Shown here: piece after piece, positions 4,818 through 11,095 of the stretch | Numbering within the stretch: position 1 is the stretch's first letter | Layout: each line of letters begins with the position of its first letter | Source of the DNA: Actinomycetes bacterium | GTDB taxonomy: Bacteria > Actinomycetota > Acidimicrobiia > Acidimicrobiales > RAAP-2 | DNA length: 64,000 nt | Direction: 5' to 3' | Assembly (NCBI GenBank): GCA_021846325.1 | Contig: JAJZBX010000006.1 | Coordinates: 13,841 to 77,840, forward strand | Translations under genes and position numbers: made by a program | The notes under the pieces: model-generated | Seen by the model: the letters and a program-made list of their open reading frames with translations, nothing else | The model's database searches: none | Told to the model about the DNA's origin: nothing

Positions 4818-7553
4818 TCAGGAACGAGGATGCCGTTGCTCCGTGTGTCGGCACTCGGGATAGTTGGAACAGCCAATGAACCGTCCGTAGCGGCCATCGC
4901 GGGTCACGAGCTTGCCCGTCCCGCAATCCGGACACTTTGCCGTCAACGTGTACCTGCAGACTGGAAAGCGGCTGCACCCCCAGAAAGCCCCGTAACGGCT
5001 GACGTTCATGGCGAGCGTCCCCTGACGGCACTTCGGGCAAACGCTCACGGGCTGGCCATCGTTGCCTTCAATGCTTACGTTTGGGTCGGTCATCAACTCG
5101 ACAACAAATGCAGACGGCTGATTCGCAGGCGCCAGTAGGTACACCCCGTGTCGCGCCCGTGTGAGCGCGACGTACAGAAGGCGGCGTTCTTCCGCGTGTG
5201 GGAACTTCTCGGGACTAGGCATAGCCAACTCGAGGACTGGATCATCCACGACGTTCGATGGAAAGCCGTAGGTTCCCGTCGTCATTCCAGGAATGACGAT
5301 GTAGTCGGCCTCTAGGCCCTTGGAGCTGTGGATCGTTCGGAACGTGAGCCTGACTCCATCGGGTATCGAACGCGGAATAACATCACGTTGGAATCCATAG
5401 CGACCAAGAACGTCGACGGATACGGACTCGCCATGACCGACGTTGGGCGCCTCGTGAGCGAGCTGCGCCACAAGCGCCGAGATGGAAGAGCGTTCGTCAT
5501 CGCTGAAGATGACCGTGATCGGCGCCGCAGCGTCCGGACGTGATGACTTCATGGGCTTGTCGAACTGCTGTGTGTTCTTCGTGATAAATGAGCGGGCAAC
5601 ATCGCAGATTGGCTGCGCGCAGCGGAAAGTTGTCGAGAGTGCCAGTTGCGGACCGCGACCGAACCAGTCCTCGAAGCGGGTCATGACCGAGAGATCCGCT
5701 CCCGCAAAGCGATTGATCGACTGCCAGTCGTCACCTACGACAACGAGGTAACGACTGGTCCCTTTGACGAGGCCACGAACCAAGCGTGCGCGTGCTTGGC
5801 TGGAGTCCTGGAACTCGTCGACCAAGATGAGGTCGTGAGAGAGTTCATGGGCGCCGGACTCCAGTAGTTCACCGGCCCGCACGAGCATGTCTTCGAAGTC
5901 CACGCTGCCGTCCTCGGCCAGTCGCCGCTGCCACTCCTCATGGATGGGCCAGTAGAGCGACAGGAACAGGCGGGTCCGATAGCCGTCCGCCGCGCTCAGT
6001 TCGTTCGCCAACCTTCGATCGAGATGAGTCGATGACCACGAGTTGGACTTCACGTGACACATGAAGGTGCGCACGAGGCGAGCGAGGTCTTCGTGCTTGA
6101 GAGTCCGATACCAGGAGTCGACGGGAGATCGATCGGGATTCCAGTCGAGCGATTCGCCTCGACGAGTCAGCTCGTCGCTGAGTCGCTGGAGGCCGTCCTC
6201 GAAGACCACGTCAGTCCAGGTGGTCTCGATGAGCGAGGTGCCGTACGTACGATGCAGATCCTTCTTCCATTGCATGCTCTGCCGGTAGCCGACGAACTCC
6301 TTGGGAGGGTTGCCATCTCGACCGATGGCCCAATGCTCATGCCACGTGTCGATGTCGGGGTAGTAGAAGTCGGGTTGGTACTGGGAGTGCGTTGCGTCGG
6401 CCACGTCGTGAACGTACGGGCGCTCGTACTGGAACTCCACGCCGTTGAAGAAGAGGAAGTCGGCAATGAGTCGTTCGCCTTCGCTCTTGACCAGCACTCC
6501 AGACGCGGTCCGGAAACCAGTGGTGCTCGTCTTCGAGTCATAGCCGTCGGGTTGCGTGTTGTCGAGCGAGGTTGATGCGCTGGCGAAGAGGAGCCGGTAG
6601 AGGTCCCAGTTGTAGCGGAAGGTTGGCGACTGATCGCGCAGTTCGTCCACGATCTTCATGACCATGTCGATCTCTTGACCCTGCTCAAGCCACGCTGCCA
6701 ACCTGGGCTTGCGCTCGGTGGCACGCCCGATGATGTCCAGGCCGAACGAGTGGAACGTGGCGGCTCTGACTCCTACAGAGGGGATCCCGGCGGCCGCGAA
6801 GCGCGTCTCGATCCGCCCCTGGAGCTCCGCTGCGGCGGCCTTGTTAAATGCCAGCAGGAGAATGCGGTCCGGCGACACCAGACCACGAGTGACGGCGTAG
6901 GCCGCCTTCGCCACCATGGTCGAGGTCTTGCCGGAGCCGGCGGCCGCGAGTATCTGCACCCGATTGTCGAAGCAGATGACCGCGCGGGCCTGCTCCTCGC
7001 TAAGGGGTGTTCTCTCGATGCTGTCGAAGAAGGCCTGCCGCTCCTGAAGCTCTAGAACCGCGACCTGTTCGTTGTTCTCATTGACAAACGGACCCAAGCC
7101 GCCAGCTGCCAGTTCCACCGCGGAGTGTTCCTCCGGGGAGTACAGGTGGACGCAGTTGGATTCTCGGCCCCTTGCTAGCAGTTCTCGTAACGCCTTTTCG
7201 GGTTGCATCTCTTCAAGGTTCTCCTGCGTGATCCACCTGCGGGTGTCGAGACGCTCCTTCAGCATCTCCTTCACACGGGTCGCCCATTGGAGGGTCTTTT
7301 CGATCTGGGGGAGGAGCCCCCAGTAGCCGATCCATGCGGTCAACTCAAAGGCGTTCTCTTTCCTACATCCCCTGAGGGTCAAAACCTCGGCAGGCCCCTC
7401 GACGAGGCGATAGCGCAAGAATCTTCGCCGCACGCCGATCGGGAGTGGTTCGCCGCGGCTGTGACTCCACGAGCCTCCTCGTGTGGTGATGTTCAGGCTG
7501 CCGGAGTCGATCTCCACACGAAAGGCGTCACAAGACCATTCGCGTTTATCCAC
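4818..7553 (-). CDS. UvrD/helicase IV-like SF1 helicase with inserted PD-(D/E)xK-type nuclease domain and two C-terminal topoisomerase-type Zn ribbons
   Basis: AAAGSGKT, LVDEFQD, VVGDDWQSINRFAGA, TIHSSKGLEAD, EERRLLYVALTRA; insert VKSEGERLIADFL...YERPY...YQPDFY...EHW; tail CPKC...WGCSRFPVC and CPDC...IGCSNYPEC. Confidence 0.85.
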   Translation of the reverse strand: MDKREWSCDAFRVEIDSGSLNITTRGGSWSHSRGEPLPIGVRRRFLRYRLVEGPAEVLTLRGCRKENAFELTAWIGYWGLLPQIEKTLQWATRVKEMLKERLDTRRWITQENLEEMQPEKALRELLARGRESNCVHLYSPEEHSAVELAAGGLGPFVNENNEQVAVLELQERQAFFDSIERTPLSEEQARAVICFDNRVQILAAAGSGKTSTMVAKAAYAVTRGLVSPDRILLLAFNKAAAAELQGRIETRFAAAGIPSVGVRAATFHSFGLDIIGRATERKPRLAAWLEQGQEIDMVMKIVDELRDQSPTFRYNWDLYRLLFASASTSLDNTQPDGYDSKTSTTGFRTASGVLVKSEGERLIADFLFFNGVEFQYERPYVHDVADATHSQYQPDFYYPDIDTWHEHWAIGRDGNPPKEFVGYRQSMQWKKDLHRTYGTSLIETTWTDVVFEDGLQRLSDELTRRGESLDWNPDRSPVDSWYRTLKHEDLARLVRTFMCHVKSNSWSSTHLDRRLANELSAADGYRTRLFLSLYWPIHEEWQRRLAEDGSVDFEDMLVRAGELLESGAHELSHDLILVDEFQDSSQARARLVRGLVKGTSRYLVVVGDDWQSINRFAGADLSVMTRFEDWFGRGPQLALSTTFRCAQPICDVARSFITKNTQQFDKPMKSSRPDAAAPITVIFSDDERSSISALVAQLAHEAPNVGHGESVSVDVLGRYGFQRDVIPRSIPDGVRLTFRTIHSSKGLEADYIVIPGMTTGTYGFPSNVVDDPVLELAMPSPEKFPHAEERRLLYVALTRARHGVYLLAPANQPSAFVVELMTDPNVSIEGNDGQPVSVCPKCRQGTLAMNVSRYGAFWGCSRFPVCRYTLTAKCPDCGTGKLVTRDGRYGRFIGCSNYPECRHTEQRHPRS

Positions 7554-8164: not shown

Positions 8165-8515
8165 TCAGCTCACCAATTCGAGCCCCGGCTCCGTGACGTC
8201 CGCTCCTCCGCCGTGAACCATTTGGTCCACGACCTTCCAGCCGGTTTGGAAGTACCACGACTTGGCAGTGTCGTAGATGAAATAGAGGTGCACGTCAAGC
8301 AGGATCGGGATGCGACCAACTGCCTAGGCACGCTTGTGGAGATAGGTGGCCTTGTGGTGCGCGTTTCTACCTTCTGACGTGTTTCGGCCGGCTCCATAGA
8401 GAGCCTTGAACACGTCGTCACCTTCCTGGAAGACGCGGTAGTTCTCGGCGACCTTGCGGCCGTCGTCTCCGTTCTACTTGTGCGGCGAGACCCATACGGC
8501 CCTTCGGTCTTCGTG
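8165..8515 (-). pseudogene. C-terminal fragment of a DDE transposase (IS4-clan-like), two in-frame stops
   Basis: Frame absent from the ORF track: FHEDRRAVWVSPHK*NGDDGRKVAENYRVFQEGDDVFKALYGAGRNTSEGRNAHHKATYLHKRA*AVGRIPILLDVHLYF...; Y-x3-R-x3-E-x6-K resembles the YREK signature; TAG at 8474-8476 and 8324-8326. Confidence 0.6.
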
Positions 8516-8523
8516 GAATGTAC
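8516..8523 (+). repeat. Target-site duplication, left copy GAATGTAC
   Basis: Identical 8-mer at 10014-10021 in direct orientation, abutting both TIRs. Can also be parsed as 6-bp AATGTA with TIRs one base longer. Confidence 0.85.
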
Positions 8524-8590
8524 CCCCTTCGGCAAACTGTGTTGGTAGAGGAGTACGGCAAATAGTCTGACTCTCGACCCGAGTCCTGAA
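8524..8590 (+). repeat. Left terminal inverted repeat
   Basis: First 40 nt match the reverse complement of 9974-10013 at 37/40; gapped extension to 8590 matches 19/27. Confidence 0.88.
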
Positions 8591-8760
8591 CCGAAGTATC
8601 TCCTAGACACCGACCAGAATCGGGGTTTCGGTTGACGCTTCAACGGGGTGTGCCGGTTCGTCGATGTTCTGACGACTCGGTCTTACCTCCCCTCCACGTC
8701 CAGCCACGGAGTGTGTCCCCGCGGCGGCAGATTGACTGGTCCACCGAGCCAGGTTGATCG
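8570..8760 (-). ncRNA. Putative omega-RNA (reRNA) of TnpB, boundaries approximate
   Basis: TnpB guide RNAs are known to overlap the 3' end of tnpB and run past it; the low-complexity C-terminal tail after RDLNAAINL fits such an overlap. Not folded computationally. Confidence 0.45.
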
Positions 8761-9946
8761 CGGCGTTGAGGTCGCGACCTATCACGAGGTTGCACCCCTC
8801 GCAGGTGTACTCCCGCTCGCCGAGGGACAGTTTGGCTTTCACTGTCCCACAGGCACTGCAGGTCTTGGACGACGGGTAGAACCGATCGGCCACCACCAGC
8901 TCGGACCCGTACCACGTGGTCTTGTACTCGAGCTGACGTCGGAACTCACCCCAACTGGCGTCAGAGATGTGCTTGGCGAGGGCGTGGTTCTTCACCATGC
9001 CCTTCACGTTCAGGTCCTCGATCACGATCCGGTCGTAGTGTTTGGCGAGATACGTCGTCGTCTCGTGGATCAAGTTGCGTCGTGAATCAGCAATCTGGTG
9101 GTGGATCTGCTGGACCCGGGCGTTGGCCCGCAGCCACCGGTTCGACGGGGCGACTCCGTTCTTCGGACCCCGGCGCCGTGACGCCACGCGCTGGGCCCGG
9201 GCGAGCTTGGCTTCGGACCGCTGGTAGTGGCGGGGGTTGGCGACCGAGAGGGCGAGTCCACCGCTCGGGGTCGCCCCGGTGTAGAGAATGGATATCCCGA
9301 CGTCAATGCCGATCACCCGTTCGGGGGGACGGGTCACGGGAACCTGGCGCTTCACCTCGACGCTGAAGGAGACCCACCACCGACCCGAGGTCTGCGAGAG
9401 CGTCGCCGCCATGATCCGCCCGGTGCCACGCTCTAGGTGGCGGTGTAACTTGCGCATCGACTCGTAGGTCTTGATCTCCCCGACGCGAGCCATGCGCACG
9501 TGGTGGGCGTCACTGAGACGTACGGCAGTGTTCGTGAACCGTACCGAGCCACTGCGACCCCGACGCTTGAAGGTGGGGAACTTCGCCGCGCCCTTCTTCC
9601 AGTTGGTGAAGGCCCGCGAGAGGCGCTGGGCGGCGTCATTGTAGGTGGACGACCCGTTCGCAGCCCACCACGGGGCCAACTCGTCGCGGTTCGCGGCCCA
9701 GAGATAGAGCAAGTCGAAGTGACTGGTGCCGAGGTAGTCCTCTTTGATGACATTTTCACCGGCTTCCTTGCGGGCCCGGTTCTCATCCCAATTGGCCTTC
9801 ACGAGACCGAGCAGGGCGTTGTAGGCGAACCGGGATCCCCCGATGTGGCTGCGCAGGAGGTTGGCCTGCTCTGGTGAGGGGTCGATCGCGAAGCGGTAGG
9901 CCTGGGTGACTGTGGTCAGGGCTGGTGGGGAATCGACAATAGCCAC
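8603..9946 (-). CDS. tnpB: TnpB RNA-guided endonuclease (IS200/IS605-IS607 TnpB family), catalytic residues intact
   Basis: N-terminal QAYRFAIDPSPEQ...HIGGSRFAYN; RuvC-I GIDVG, RuvC-II IEDL, Zn finger CSACG...CEGC, RuvC-III RDLNAAINL. Confidence 0.95.
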   Translation of the reverse strand: MAIVDSPPALTTVTQAYRFAIDPSPEQANLLRSHIGGSRFAYNALLGLVKANWDENRARKEAGENVIKEDYLGTSHFDLLYLWAANRDELAPWWAANGSSTYNDAAQRLSRAFTNWKKGAAKFPTFKRRGRSGSVRFTNTAVRLSDAHHVRMARVGEIKTYESMRKLHRHLERGTGRIMAATLSQTSGRWWVSFSVEVKRQVPVTRPPERVIGIDVGISILYTGATPSGGLALSVANPRHYQRSEAKLARAQRVASRRRGPKNGVAPSNRWLRANARVQQIHHQIADSRRNLIHETTTYLAKHYDRIVIEDLNVKGMVKNHALAKHISDASWGEFRRQLEYKTTWYGSELVVADRFYPSSKTCSACGTVKAKLSLGEREYTCEGCNLVIGRDLNAAINLARWTSQSAAAGTHSVAGRGGEVRPSRQNIDEPAHPVEASTETPILVGV

Positions 9947-9949
9947 GCA

Positions 9950-10013
9950 TGCAGTATCGGCTCGGAGTGTGACATTGGCCTTACTCCTCTACCCACACAG
10001 TTTGCCGAAGGGG
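9950..10013 (-). repeat. Right terminal inverted repeat
   Basis: Reverse complement ccccttcggcaaactgtgtgggtagaggagtaaggccaatgtcacactccgagccgatactgca aligns to 8524-8590. Confidence 0.88.
9953..9958 (-). promoter_or_regulatory. Candidate -10 (GATACT) for leaderless tnpB transcript, inside the right TIR
   Basis: Exactly 6 nt upstream of the GTG at 9946, the same spacing as other leaderless genes in this window. Confidence 0.45.
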
Positions 10014-10021
10014 GAATGTAC
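10014..10021 (+). repeat. Target-site duplication, right copy GAATGTAC
   Basis: Identical to 8516-8523. Confidence 0.85.
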
Positions 10022-10048
10022 AAATAGCGCCTTTAGTAACTTGGTGAA

Positions 10049-11095
10049 ATGTCGGCAGCCCCATCATCTTTTGCGGAGAAGCTCGTGCGAGCACCCGCCG
10101 GTGTCGCACTCTTGGCCCGCTTGGAGGTCACGCAACGCGATGACATTCCTTGGTTCGGGTGGCCAAAAGACTCGAATCTGAACGCGGTTCATCGTGCGGC
10201 GTCATCCCTTTGGGATATGCCGTATGGAGAATTGCTCGAACTGGCTGTCTACTCCGCCGAATTTCTGGCTGGACCATGGAGCGGCGACGCACTCCTGTCG
10301 CTTCCTTACTTGTATGAGCAGGCCGTGCATCGTCGCCCGATAGCCGAGGCCGTATCCGAAAGGTTCCACACAGAGCTCCACCGTGACGCGGACTTTGGCG
10401 CACAACAGTGGTGGTACGAAGAACCACACGATTCAACTTATGTTGCGACCCCCTGCTTCACCAACTACTCGAACGTATACGGCAACGGCGAGTTCACGGT
10501 GAGTGGGCTTTGGACCGCGACTGACCCGCCACCAGAAGTTCACGACGCCCTCATTTCAGCGTGGGACTTTTTCGGACGACCCGTCTCGCGCTGGCTACTT
10601 CCCGTTCGACCGAGCGCGCGCGTATGGAACATCAACGGGCCCGAAGACTGGGCCCATTTGGTCGAGACCTATCCGAAAGTGGCGACTCGACCGCATGCTG
10701 GTTGGGAGCTGCCTGGCCCCAACCAGCATCCATCCGATACCAAGATGTTGAGGTCTATCGCTGCTCAGCACGCTGTGAGAACCGAGATCACTGTTCACGT
10801 GCTGCCCGACTGGGAGGGCGTCGCGGCCGACTTCGACGGGGTTCATCTCAGTTGGGCAGGGTTTCTCACTGCCGAGGGTTATATCAGCGACCTGTCGGAC
10901 GGAGGCGTCACGATGATGCGGTACTGGGGCAGCGAACGTACCCTTTGGCTCCACGACGTTTTCGACGAACCAATCCCCCTCGGAGCCCCTGCGCTTACGG
11001 GGCAAGTCGGTGGCGGAGTTGGAGTTGATGCATCGAGCGACACCGAGCGCCAGGCGTCGGATAGGTCGGTAGTCGAAACACTCTTGGACCGCTAG
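10049..11095 (+). CDS. Conserved hypothetical protein, possible ADP-ribosyltransferase-like fold
   Basis: 348-aa ORF with TAACTT-N6-ATG leaderless start; motifs GLWTAT, ARVWNINGPEDW, DWEGVAADFDGVHLS, WGSERTLWL. Confidence 0.6.
   Translation: MSAAPSSFAEKLVRAPAGVALLARLEVTQRDDIPWFGWPKDSNLNAVHRAASSLWDMPYGELLELAVYSAEFLAGPWSGDALLSLPYLYEQAVHRRPIAEAVSERFHTELHRDADFGAQQWWYEEPHDSTYVATPCFTNYSNVYGNGEFTVSGLWTATDPPPEVHDALISAWDFFGRPVSRWLLPVRPSARVWNINGPEDWAHLVETYPKVATRPHAGWELPGPNQHPSDTKMLRSIAAQHAVRTEITVHVLPDWEGVAADFDGVHLSWAGFLTAEGYISDLSDGGVTMMRYWGSERTLWLHDVFDEPIPLGAPALTGQVGGGVGVDASSDTERQASDRSVVETLLDR

Follow-up and report, generated by a model that had tools for sequence, protein, structure and literature searches.

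How does a bacterial tnpB gene come to lie between terminal inverted repeats (TIRs), and how could such a unit move if it carries no transposase gene? The question is raised by a locus in a 64,000-nucleotide stretch of DNA, here called the window, from an Actinomycetes bacterium of the order Acidimicrobiales (contig JAJZBX010000006.1, positions 13,841 to 77,840, assembly GCA_021846325.1). Cas12 descends from TnpB, which is itself a compact genome editor and whose cooperation with different transposition chemistries is an open topic. The element described here belongs to a family for which we delimited 26 independent insertions, each with its own 8-bp target-site duplication. We consider it probable, at roughly 0.6, that this is a non-autonomous family with an IS607-clade tnpB that is mobilised in trans by a DDE-type transposase, with TnpB in a homing or maintenance role.

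A 1,490-bp unit with tnpB as its only gene

The unit spans window positions 8524-10013 on the plus strand and has the 8-mer GAATGTAC on either side. One copy of this target-site duplication adjoins the right end, on the 3' side of tnpB (8516-8523); the other, a perfect 8-bp match, directly abuts the TIR of the left end (10014-10021). The only gene, tnpB, is on the minus strand at 8603-9946. The right-end TIR, which is also the 3' part of a predicted guide-RNA scaffold, comprises 41 nt at 8524-8564 (minus strand). The left end is 67 nt long (9947-10013, minus strand), and its outer 41 nt (9973-10013) form the left TIR. As computed, the inverted repeat joins 8523-8563 to 9974-10014 over 41 nt, with 38/41 positions (93%) complementary. 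Because the TIR begins with runs of C or G, the boundary of the element is ambiguous by one base, and the register of the duplication was chosen that fits all other copies. A 33-nt TIR probe has two exact matches in the window, versus zero expected from shuffled sequence.

The end sequence of this tnpB family is CNCCTTCGGCAAACT, with the core CGGCAAACT. Past TIR position 41 the ends diverge, reading ...AAATAGTCTG on the 3' side of tnpB and ...CAATGTCACAC on its 5' side. The non-coding ends measure 67 nt on the 5' side of tnpB and 79 nt beyond its stop codon, which includes an end-specific remainder, inward of the 41-nt TIRs, of 26 nt on the left and 38 nt on the right. The preliminary description of the locus had placed tnpB between TIRs with a flanking duplication, which we confirm; its repeat length of 64-67 nt has to be shortened to 41 nt. 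The inner left end is conserved among copies (TGTCACAC..CCGATACTG) and is possibly the promoter of a leaderless tnpB mRNA. A scan of the left end for a consensus promoter gave no match.

Copies of the element and their duplications

The genome that carries the element is assembled as 2.28 Mb in 97 contigs (66% GC). It holds three further full copies, two at 86-88% identity and one at 68%, and several remnants. Of the first 25 genus genomes sampled, 13 have DNA matches. In peat metagenomes, protein relatives at 62-89% identity are common, and the related loci belong to uncultured Acidimicrobiaceae and Acidimicrobiales of palsa, bog and fen. All copies that could be fetched from the element's own genome, its genus and metagenomes were delimited. 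This yielded 26 independent insertions bounded by TIRs, each with an 8-bp direct repeat of its own sequence; 22 of these duplications are perfect, and 4 have one mismatch. The elements are 1.46-1.50 kb in size.

Because the 26 insertions have differing 8-bp duplications, the unit moves whole, by staggered-cut transposition; transposition as a unit is thereby demonstrated. The preliminary description had proposed such a mobile TIR-bounded unit with tnpB and no transposase, and had suggested a search for copies with different duplications, which the 26 insertions now supply. It had also named what would speak against the proposal: copies of this tnpB with IS605/IS607-type ends elsewhere, a one-off landing in a miniature inverted-repeat transposable element (MITE), or an artefact of assembly. 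None of these holds: the 26 copies share their TIRs and have duplications of differing sequence, which excludes both a single landing in a MITE and IS605 or IS607 chemistry, and recurrence of the repeats in many independent assemblies and metagenomes excludes an artefact.

Identity between copies is 75-87%, even within one genome, and synonymous divergence (dS) is 0.3-0.9. If the insertions were as old as the lineages, about two changes per 16 duplicated bases would be expected. Copies that differ by 13-25% yet have intact duplications show that the insertions are much younger than the lineages. Distinct lineages have thus continued to move, or to arrive, while remaining low in copy number.

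Four copies have no duplication, and at least two of these are recombinants. The ends of one (locus L079) are of two different subtypes. Another (L217) shares its left end and flank with locus L216 and has a different right end. In these two loci, on metagenome contigs Ga0224557_1037041 (L216) and Ga0224558_1002621 (L217), the left flank, the adjoining half of the duplication and the left TIR are common to both, whereas the right TIRs and flanks differ; the pattern points to recombination between two copies. One insertion with identical flanks is present in two species-level genomes, the element's own (G000 C41:467-1954, locus L002) and a relative (G002:C11:23656-25143, locus L018). It lacks a duplication (CACGAGGA versus CATCCACC); it represents an old copy that was rearranged, or else it arose when copies recombined with each other.

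Partial copies were also seen. Locus L034 (G002:C7:8926-9259) is an internal-deletion derivative of ~334 bp in which ~100 nt from the left end run directly into ~236 nt from the right-end and guide-RNA region; its left TIR is decayed, and it has no duplication. The solo remnants in the element's own genome all derive from the right-end, or guide-RNA, side (C77:6609-6867, C77:188489-188585, C79:45858-46070 and C65:454-492). No left-end-only remnant was seen in that genome, and right-end pieces in relatives are similar. These remnants could be decay products or retained guide-RNA genes.

Target sequence

Twenty-four sites with clean duplications, all oriented by tnpB, were used to analyse the target. 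On the left-end side, T occupies position -2 in 21/24 sites and A or T occupies position -1 in all 24. On the right-end side, A or T is found at +1 in 17/24 and A at +2 in 16/24. Within the duplication, G or C is preferred at positions 1 and 8, and A or T at positions 2 and 7 (A..T). The resulting consensus, T-W-G-A-N4-T-C-W-A, is palindromic and can be abbreviated T-W/N8/W-A. A palindromic target is expected of a two-fold symmetric transposase complex that cuts with an 8-bp stagger. The left-end side is the stricter of the two, with TW in 21/24 sites versus WA in 11/24 (Fisher P=0.005).

TnpB protein

The tnpB gene encodes 447 amino acids from a GTG start codon. The protein matches the Pfam families HTH_OrfB_IS605, OrfB_IS605 and Cas12f1-like_TNB, and it aligns over its full length with the ISDra2 TnpB structures 8h1j and 8bf8 (E=7e-41 over residues 16-425). 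The motifs GIDVGI, IEDLN and RDLNAAIN line up with their counterparts in ISDra2 TnpB, as do both CxxC pairs, which bears out the earlier statement that the RuvC acidic residues (D215, E310 and D392) and the zinc finger (C363, C366, C382 and C385) are intact. The frame is open in 23 of the 26 family copies, and the median dN/dS (nonsynonymous to synonymous rate ratio) of 0.32 indicates purifying selection. By these features TnpB appears to be a catalytically intact nuclease of the RNA-guided type.

Scores against NCBIfam models place the protein, as judged by its sequence, in the IS607 clade: 380 bits for IS607_TnpB (NF038280; cut-off 350), 286 bits for guided_TnpB (NF040570; cut-off 100) and 257 bits for IS200_TnpB, below the cut-off of 425. 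The nearest annotated relatives on plasmids, at no more than 43% identity, are IS607 TnpBs, some of them beside a serine transposase. Two solo IS607-clade TnpBs that were inspected, on plasmids of Curtobacterium and Mycolicibacterium, are without 40-nt TIRs of this kind. Because the RuvC glutamate is in its canonical place, the protein does not belong to the presumed progenitor clade of Fanzors, in which this site is rearranged.

Guide RNA and candidate target-adjacent motif

The predicted guide-RNA scaffold (omega RNA, or right-end element RNA, reRNA) lies at 8524-8724 on the minus strand, where it covers the final ~120 nt of tnpB together with the complete right end. For the last 230 nt of the 26 copies, RNAalifold predicts 33 pairs, 11 of which have compensatory changes. 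An 8-pair inner helix was added by hand to give a structure of 41 pairs. In this structure 93.8% of cells are paired, versus 36-47% when the partners are slid by 1-3 columns. Its covariation score of 0.223, versus 0.03-0.08, is reached by no shuffle, and 14 of its pairs carry double changes. The scaffold is therefore supported by covariation. The single-sequence fold is not significant (z=-0.23), and no Rfam family matches.

The outermost helix is formed by CUUCGGU just after the stop codon (the 5' arm, 8590-8596, minus strand) and GCCGAAG at 8527-8533, which is right-TIR positions 4-10. Two of its columns vary as UA:17/CG:7/UG:2 and UA:18/AU:4/UG:2/CG:1/GC:1. A weaker inner helix, AACUCGG/CCGAGUU, has 77% paired. 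It shows that the TIR is present in the right end once more, as a third partial copy that lies internally and in the opposite orientation; the CUUCGGU arm belongs to this copy.

Because the scaffold reaches to 3 nt from the end of the element, the guide would consist of the duplication plus flank. For the element in the window, the putative guide template is thus GTACATTCCACGAAGACCGA at 8504-8523 (minus strand), just past the right end. This assignment draws on the position of the scaffold end and on the build of TnpB reRNAs (PMC10711439), and it agrees with what Yoon et al. describe in that paper. A guide inside the TIR was considered and rejected, as the scaffold helix extends to 3 nt from the end. 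The stretch of 16-24 nt between scaffold and TIR also speaks against it, being semi-conserved (GGTGA..GGGC) rather than hypervariable.

In an empty site, the stricter side of the target is directly 5' of the right-end-flank sequence. This is the place of a target-adjacent motif (TAM) if the guide is read from the right flank. For the present element the candidate TAM is TTT on the tnpB strand (10022-10024, minus strand), directly 5' of the duplicated target in the empty site. The target preference of the transposase would in this way supply a short (A/G)T(A/T) TAM, and insertions without it would presumably not be maintained.

Proposed mode of transposition

According to the favoured reading, the element would move as double-stranded DNA by means of a transposase that it does not encode. 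The transposase would recognise the ~41-nt inverted ends and make 8-bp staggered cuts in the loosely palindromic target. TIRs together with 8-bp staggered cuts in a palindromic target are typical of DDE-type transposases, and for this reason we infer such an enzyme, supplied in trans. TnpB and its guide RNA would perform their usual role in selfish maintenance. Transcription of the scaffold would run from the 3' end of tnpB across the right TIR to ~3 nt before the boundary, and the guide would be the duplicated 8 bp and the downstream flank. In an unoccupied allele this target would be preceded by the (A/G)-T-(A/T) TAM, and would be cut and then refilled by recombination. The occupied site would be immune because its TAM position holds the G-rich tip of the TIR. 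The scaffold in this scheme is backed by covariation; the guide, the TAM and homing are inferred.

Search for the mobilising transposase

A de novo scan of the whole of the element's own genome for TIRs with target-site duplications returned this element only, and none of ~30 copies contains a second gene, including a serine-recombinase tnpA. When one genome per GTDB species was scanned for the TIR, the matches listed were mostly chance ones, and the true ones among them were known TnpB copies. In 300 genomes of the order, the TIR pattern gave single matches at about the control rate. A blast search of the TIR against 72,556 plasmids produced nothing relevant. TIR pairs at four loci (L098, L104, L118 and L126) were checked and are unrelated. 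An inverted repeat of 76 nt around an ISL3 gene at locus L071 consists of two convergent paralogous gene ends and not of TIRs.

Several results of this search weigh against a transposase acting in trans. A fuzzy TIR search of the element's own genome recovered TnpB copies and right-end remnants only, and the good TIR matches in eight relatives are all either TnpB copies or contig ends. The 101 genus genomes contain 23 inverted TIR pairs that share a contig; every one of them encloses tnpB only, at a spacing of 1,457-1,481 bp, bar one 1,240-bp deletion derivative. Relatives in metagenomes are of the same size, with no transposase between their TIRs. Poor assembly does not fully account for the missing partner, since some of the genomes consist of 1-10 contigs. 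A query for the empty site matched single flanks only in 61 genomes of the genus; in one of them (G334) the gene of the right flank is present with a different upstream region. Of the families with 8-bp duplications, IS1595, IS6 and IS256 are rejected as partners. IS1595 transposases occur in 19 of 61 genus genomes, none with a CGGCAAACT TIR; IS6 (DDE_Tnp_IS240) occurs in 0 of the 101; and IS256-like ends in the element's own genome read GTCCC..AAGTGGTGTAA, unlike those of the element. The ISL3 elements of the genus have tips that read GG rather than the CNCC of the TnpB element, and the two ISL3 duplications seen are AT-rich and without TW/WA flanks. To these points must be added the concerted evolution of the two ends described below, which a shared foreign transposase does not predict.

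The absence of an autonomous relative with the same ends could reflect sampling. Such a partner had been anticipated by the preliminary description and was not found in the element's own genome, the 101 genus genomes or the metagenome relatives; neither an empty MITE form nor, among the 61 genus genomes, an empty site in relatives came to light.

Concerted evolution of the two ends

The two TIRs of one element are ~85-100% alike, whereas TIRs of different elements are ~69% alike. To quantify this, left and right ends were treated as a helix over 40 positions in 23 elements. In this arrangement 91.7% of cells are complementary, and changes in both ends occur at 21/40 positions, several of which have three or four states. 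The covariation score is 0.338, versus 0.06-0.09 in slid controls. Positions 5-6, which covary, also pair within the guide RNA, whereas positions 16-17 and 23-32 do not. Three causes are possible: template switching may correct the inverted repeat, the ends may pair in a single-stranded intermediate and then undergo mismatch repair, or a factor that the element encodes may recognise the ends. RNA pairing between left and right ends was rejected as a cause because the mismatches are without G-U bias (18 sense, 12 antisense and 19 transversions).

Alternative explanations

The best candidate for the mover, on slender evidence, is an ISL3-family transposase. The element would then be an ISL3-derived miniature carrier that has acquired a tnpB and guide-RNA module. 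This is a narrower case within the favoured reading, and we regard it as doubtful in this specific form. Of 31 genus genomes, 17 have ISL3 transposases, among them 6 of the 9 in which full TnpB elements occur, and the ISL3 elements of the genus also duplicate 8 bp. Their TIR, GGCTCTTC[G/T]G...[T]GTGGGT, resembles that of the TnpB elements more than shuffles do: the mean best match is 11.5/24 versus 9.1 (sd 0.37; 0/1000 shuffles), and the highest is 17/24 (P=0.002). The offset between the two kinds of TIR is one base throughout, and both have CTTCGG and GTGGGT blocks at equal spacing. However, the tips differ, the ISL3 terminus being one base shorter as well as GG instead of CNCC, and the duplicated bases of the ISL3 targets seen (n=2) are AT-rich. 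ISL3 transposases and full TnpB elements co-occur weakly (6/9 versus 4/16, Fisher P=0.09), and the CGGCAAACT core is in no ISL3 copy of the 101 genus genomes. Alternatively, the copies could be fossils, moved by a transposase that is now lost and persisting only through TnpB homing and vertical descent. The failure to find a partner, the low copy number per lineage and the identity of only 75-87% between copies within a genome would fit this history, which we nevertheless judge improbable. Despite dS of 0.3-0.9, 22/26 duplications are perfect where about two substitutions per 16 bases would be expected, and most reading frames are intact.

It is also conceivable that TnpB itself takes part in transposition. 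The 3' arm of the predicted guide RNA is a transcript of the right TIR and is complementary to the left TIR. If the TnpB ribonucleoprotein (RNP) or this RNA helped to recognise or process both ends, that would keep the ends identical within each lineage; the tnpB and guide-RNA module would be more than a passenger, and the element would be an RNA-assisted transposon of the TIR and duplication type without a dedicated transposase. We consider this very unlikely, and give marginally less credence still to a fully autonomous element, in which the RNP recognises the ends and contributes to excision or integration with no separate transposase. That all 23 TIR pairs in the 101 genomes enclose tnpB only would agree with autonomy, as would the facts that TnpB is the sole product of the element, that it is under purifying selection and that both TIRs co-change in each lineage (21/40 positions), as they would when the recognising factor is self-encoded. 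RuvC is a nuclease of the RNase H fold, like the DDE enzymes. Known TnpB proteins, however, cut ~15-21 bp from the TAM, whereas the duplicated bases here occupy positions 1-8 in the predicted target. The stagger is a constant 8 bp and the target two-fold symmetric, which likewise points to a symmetric protein complex and not to an asymmetric RNP; the lack of G-U bias among mismatches between the ends also argues against autonomy; and TnpB is dispensable for transposition of IS608 and ISDra2 (PMC13565253). Least credible of all, to the point of near dismissal, is an ordinary element of IS607 or IS605 type, with a serine or Y1 TnpA and with repeats that are incidental or artefactual. The TnpB score above the IS607_TnpB cut-off, the IS607 TnpBs among its nearest cultured relatives (at most 43% identity), some of them beside a serine transposase, and a hairpin in the right end could all be cited for it. 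However, IS607 and IS605 elements have neither TIRs nor duplications (PMC6188088, PMC13565253), and here there are 26 8-bp duplications of unrelated sequence, which refute that chemistry. Moreover, tnpA adjoins no copy, and the solo IS607-clade TnpBs on the Curtobacterium and Mycolicibacterium plasmids lack such TIRs.

Relation to known systems

The preliminary description had suggested a possibly undescribed class and had treated TIR-borne homologues as a hallmark of the eukaryotic Fanzors. Both points are superseded by Altae-Tran et al. (2023, PNAS, PMC10691335), who report, for bacteria, six branches of DDE-transposase-associated TnpBs (DDE-1 to DDE-6), all with inverted terminal repeats, and solo TnpBs within such ends that are presumably mobilised in trans. 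As in the elements described there, our family has a prokaryotic tnpB between inverted terminal repeats and a tnpB 3' end within 250 bp of the transposon end. In contrast to them, no version that bears a transposase was found. The family could be one of the six DDE branches or stand apart from them. A 2026 review also covers DDE-associated TnpBs and gives their partners as ISL2, IS630 and IS1031 (PMC13565253).

With Fanzor2* and Fanzor1 (Yoon et al. 2023, NAR, PMC10711439) the family shares the capture of an IS607-clade nuclease by a cut-and-paste transposon with TIRs and duplications, the presence of non-autonomous copies with the nuclease only, and a TIR that is predicted to be part of the guide-RNA scaffold. 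It differs in being bacterial and in its canonical RuvC glutamate, as opposed to the rearranged site of the progenitor clade of Fanzors. Furthermore, its 8-bp duplication varies in sequence and thus cannot be a fixed part of the scaffold. The ISfinder families ISL2, IS630 and IS1031 make duplications of 2-3 bp or of TA, as opposed to the 8 bp of the present family. IS607 elements resemble the family in TnpB clade (NF038280 above its cut-off) and in having short motifs repeated in the ends (here CGGCAAA, twice per end); they are set apart by the absence here of tnpA and of GG/GG crossover ends and by the 41-nt TIRs and 8-bp duplications. The IS1341 group of IS200/IS605 likewise has tnpB as its only gene and a right-end hairpin. 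Its copies in haloarchaea are unusually divergent (PMC3119063), as are the copies of the present family. IS1341-type elements, however, have subterminal hairpins at both ends, insert 3' of a fixed tetra- or pentanucleotide and have neither TIRs nor duplications, whereas the present family has duplications, a covarying hairpin at the right end only and the target TW/N8/WA. Its likeness to ISL3 lies in the 8-bp duplication, in TIRs of similar length and in the common CTTCGG...GTGGGT blocks; no DDE_Tnp_ISL3 gene is inside the unit, and terminal bases and target preference differ.

Among the copies the TIRs are conserved, and the duplication has a constant length of 8 bp and a variable sequence, as in non-autonomous DDE-type elements. 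The element appears to behave as a non-autonomous DDE-type element with a TnpB homing module, and by the features that define IS607 and IS200/IS605 it belongs to neither. The kind is already known; what is added is a well-populated new family, in which an IS607-clade TnpB is combined with ISL3-like ends and an 8-bp duplication and for which no partner is visible. A weaker form of the RNA-assisted reading is also conceivable, namely that here, for the first time in bacteria, a family of IS607-clade TnpBs is linked to cut-and-paste transposition of an ISL3-like, 8-bp-duplicating kind, with the TAM supplied by the preference of the transposase.

As an IS607-clade nuclease in a transposon with TIRs and duplications, the family is a prokaryotic counterpart of Fanzor2*-type capture. 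Its 26 delimited insertions allow the homing logic on a duplicating transposon to be read: the guide would start with the duplicated bases, and the preference of the transposase would put a short A/T motif at the place of the TAM. If the partner is ordinary, for example ISL3, the family adds to the 2023 catalogue in a useful but incremental way. Two leads go further, namely the absence of an autonomous partner from 101 related genomes and the concerted evolution of the ends across deeply diverged lineages. Interest would be high only if these two leads signify a role of TnpB in transposition itself.

Genomic surroundings

When the flanks at 8330-8521 and 10022-10109 (minus strand) are joined, one reading frame runs across the insertion point (MRHRRV...GAICTFHEDRRAVWVSPHK, an in-frame TAG, then NGDDGRKVAENYRVFQEGDD...). 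The frame has no Pfam match, and the element may sit in a small gene that was already broken. Just upstream of the insertion, at window positions 4818-7553 (minus strand), is a gene for a 911-amino-acid UvrD-type helicase with two C-terminal zinc ribbons of topoisomerase type.

Elsewhere in the same genome, fragments of IS256-family transposase genes lie at three contig ends (C5:3-707, C12:6-533 and C76:3-389), which shows that a multi-copy IS256-like element breaks the assembly. A palindromic repeat of ~118 nt is present in three places at 97-100% identity (C65:805-922, C47:1540-1657 and C51:72938-73056). The C47 copy lies where an IS110-family (DEDD) transposase gene (C47:1641-2900) ends, and a TnpB element has its left TIR ~50 nt away from this copy.

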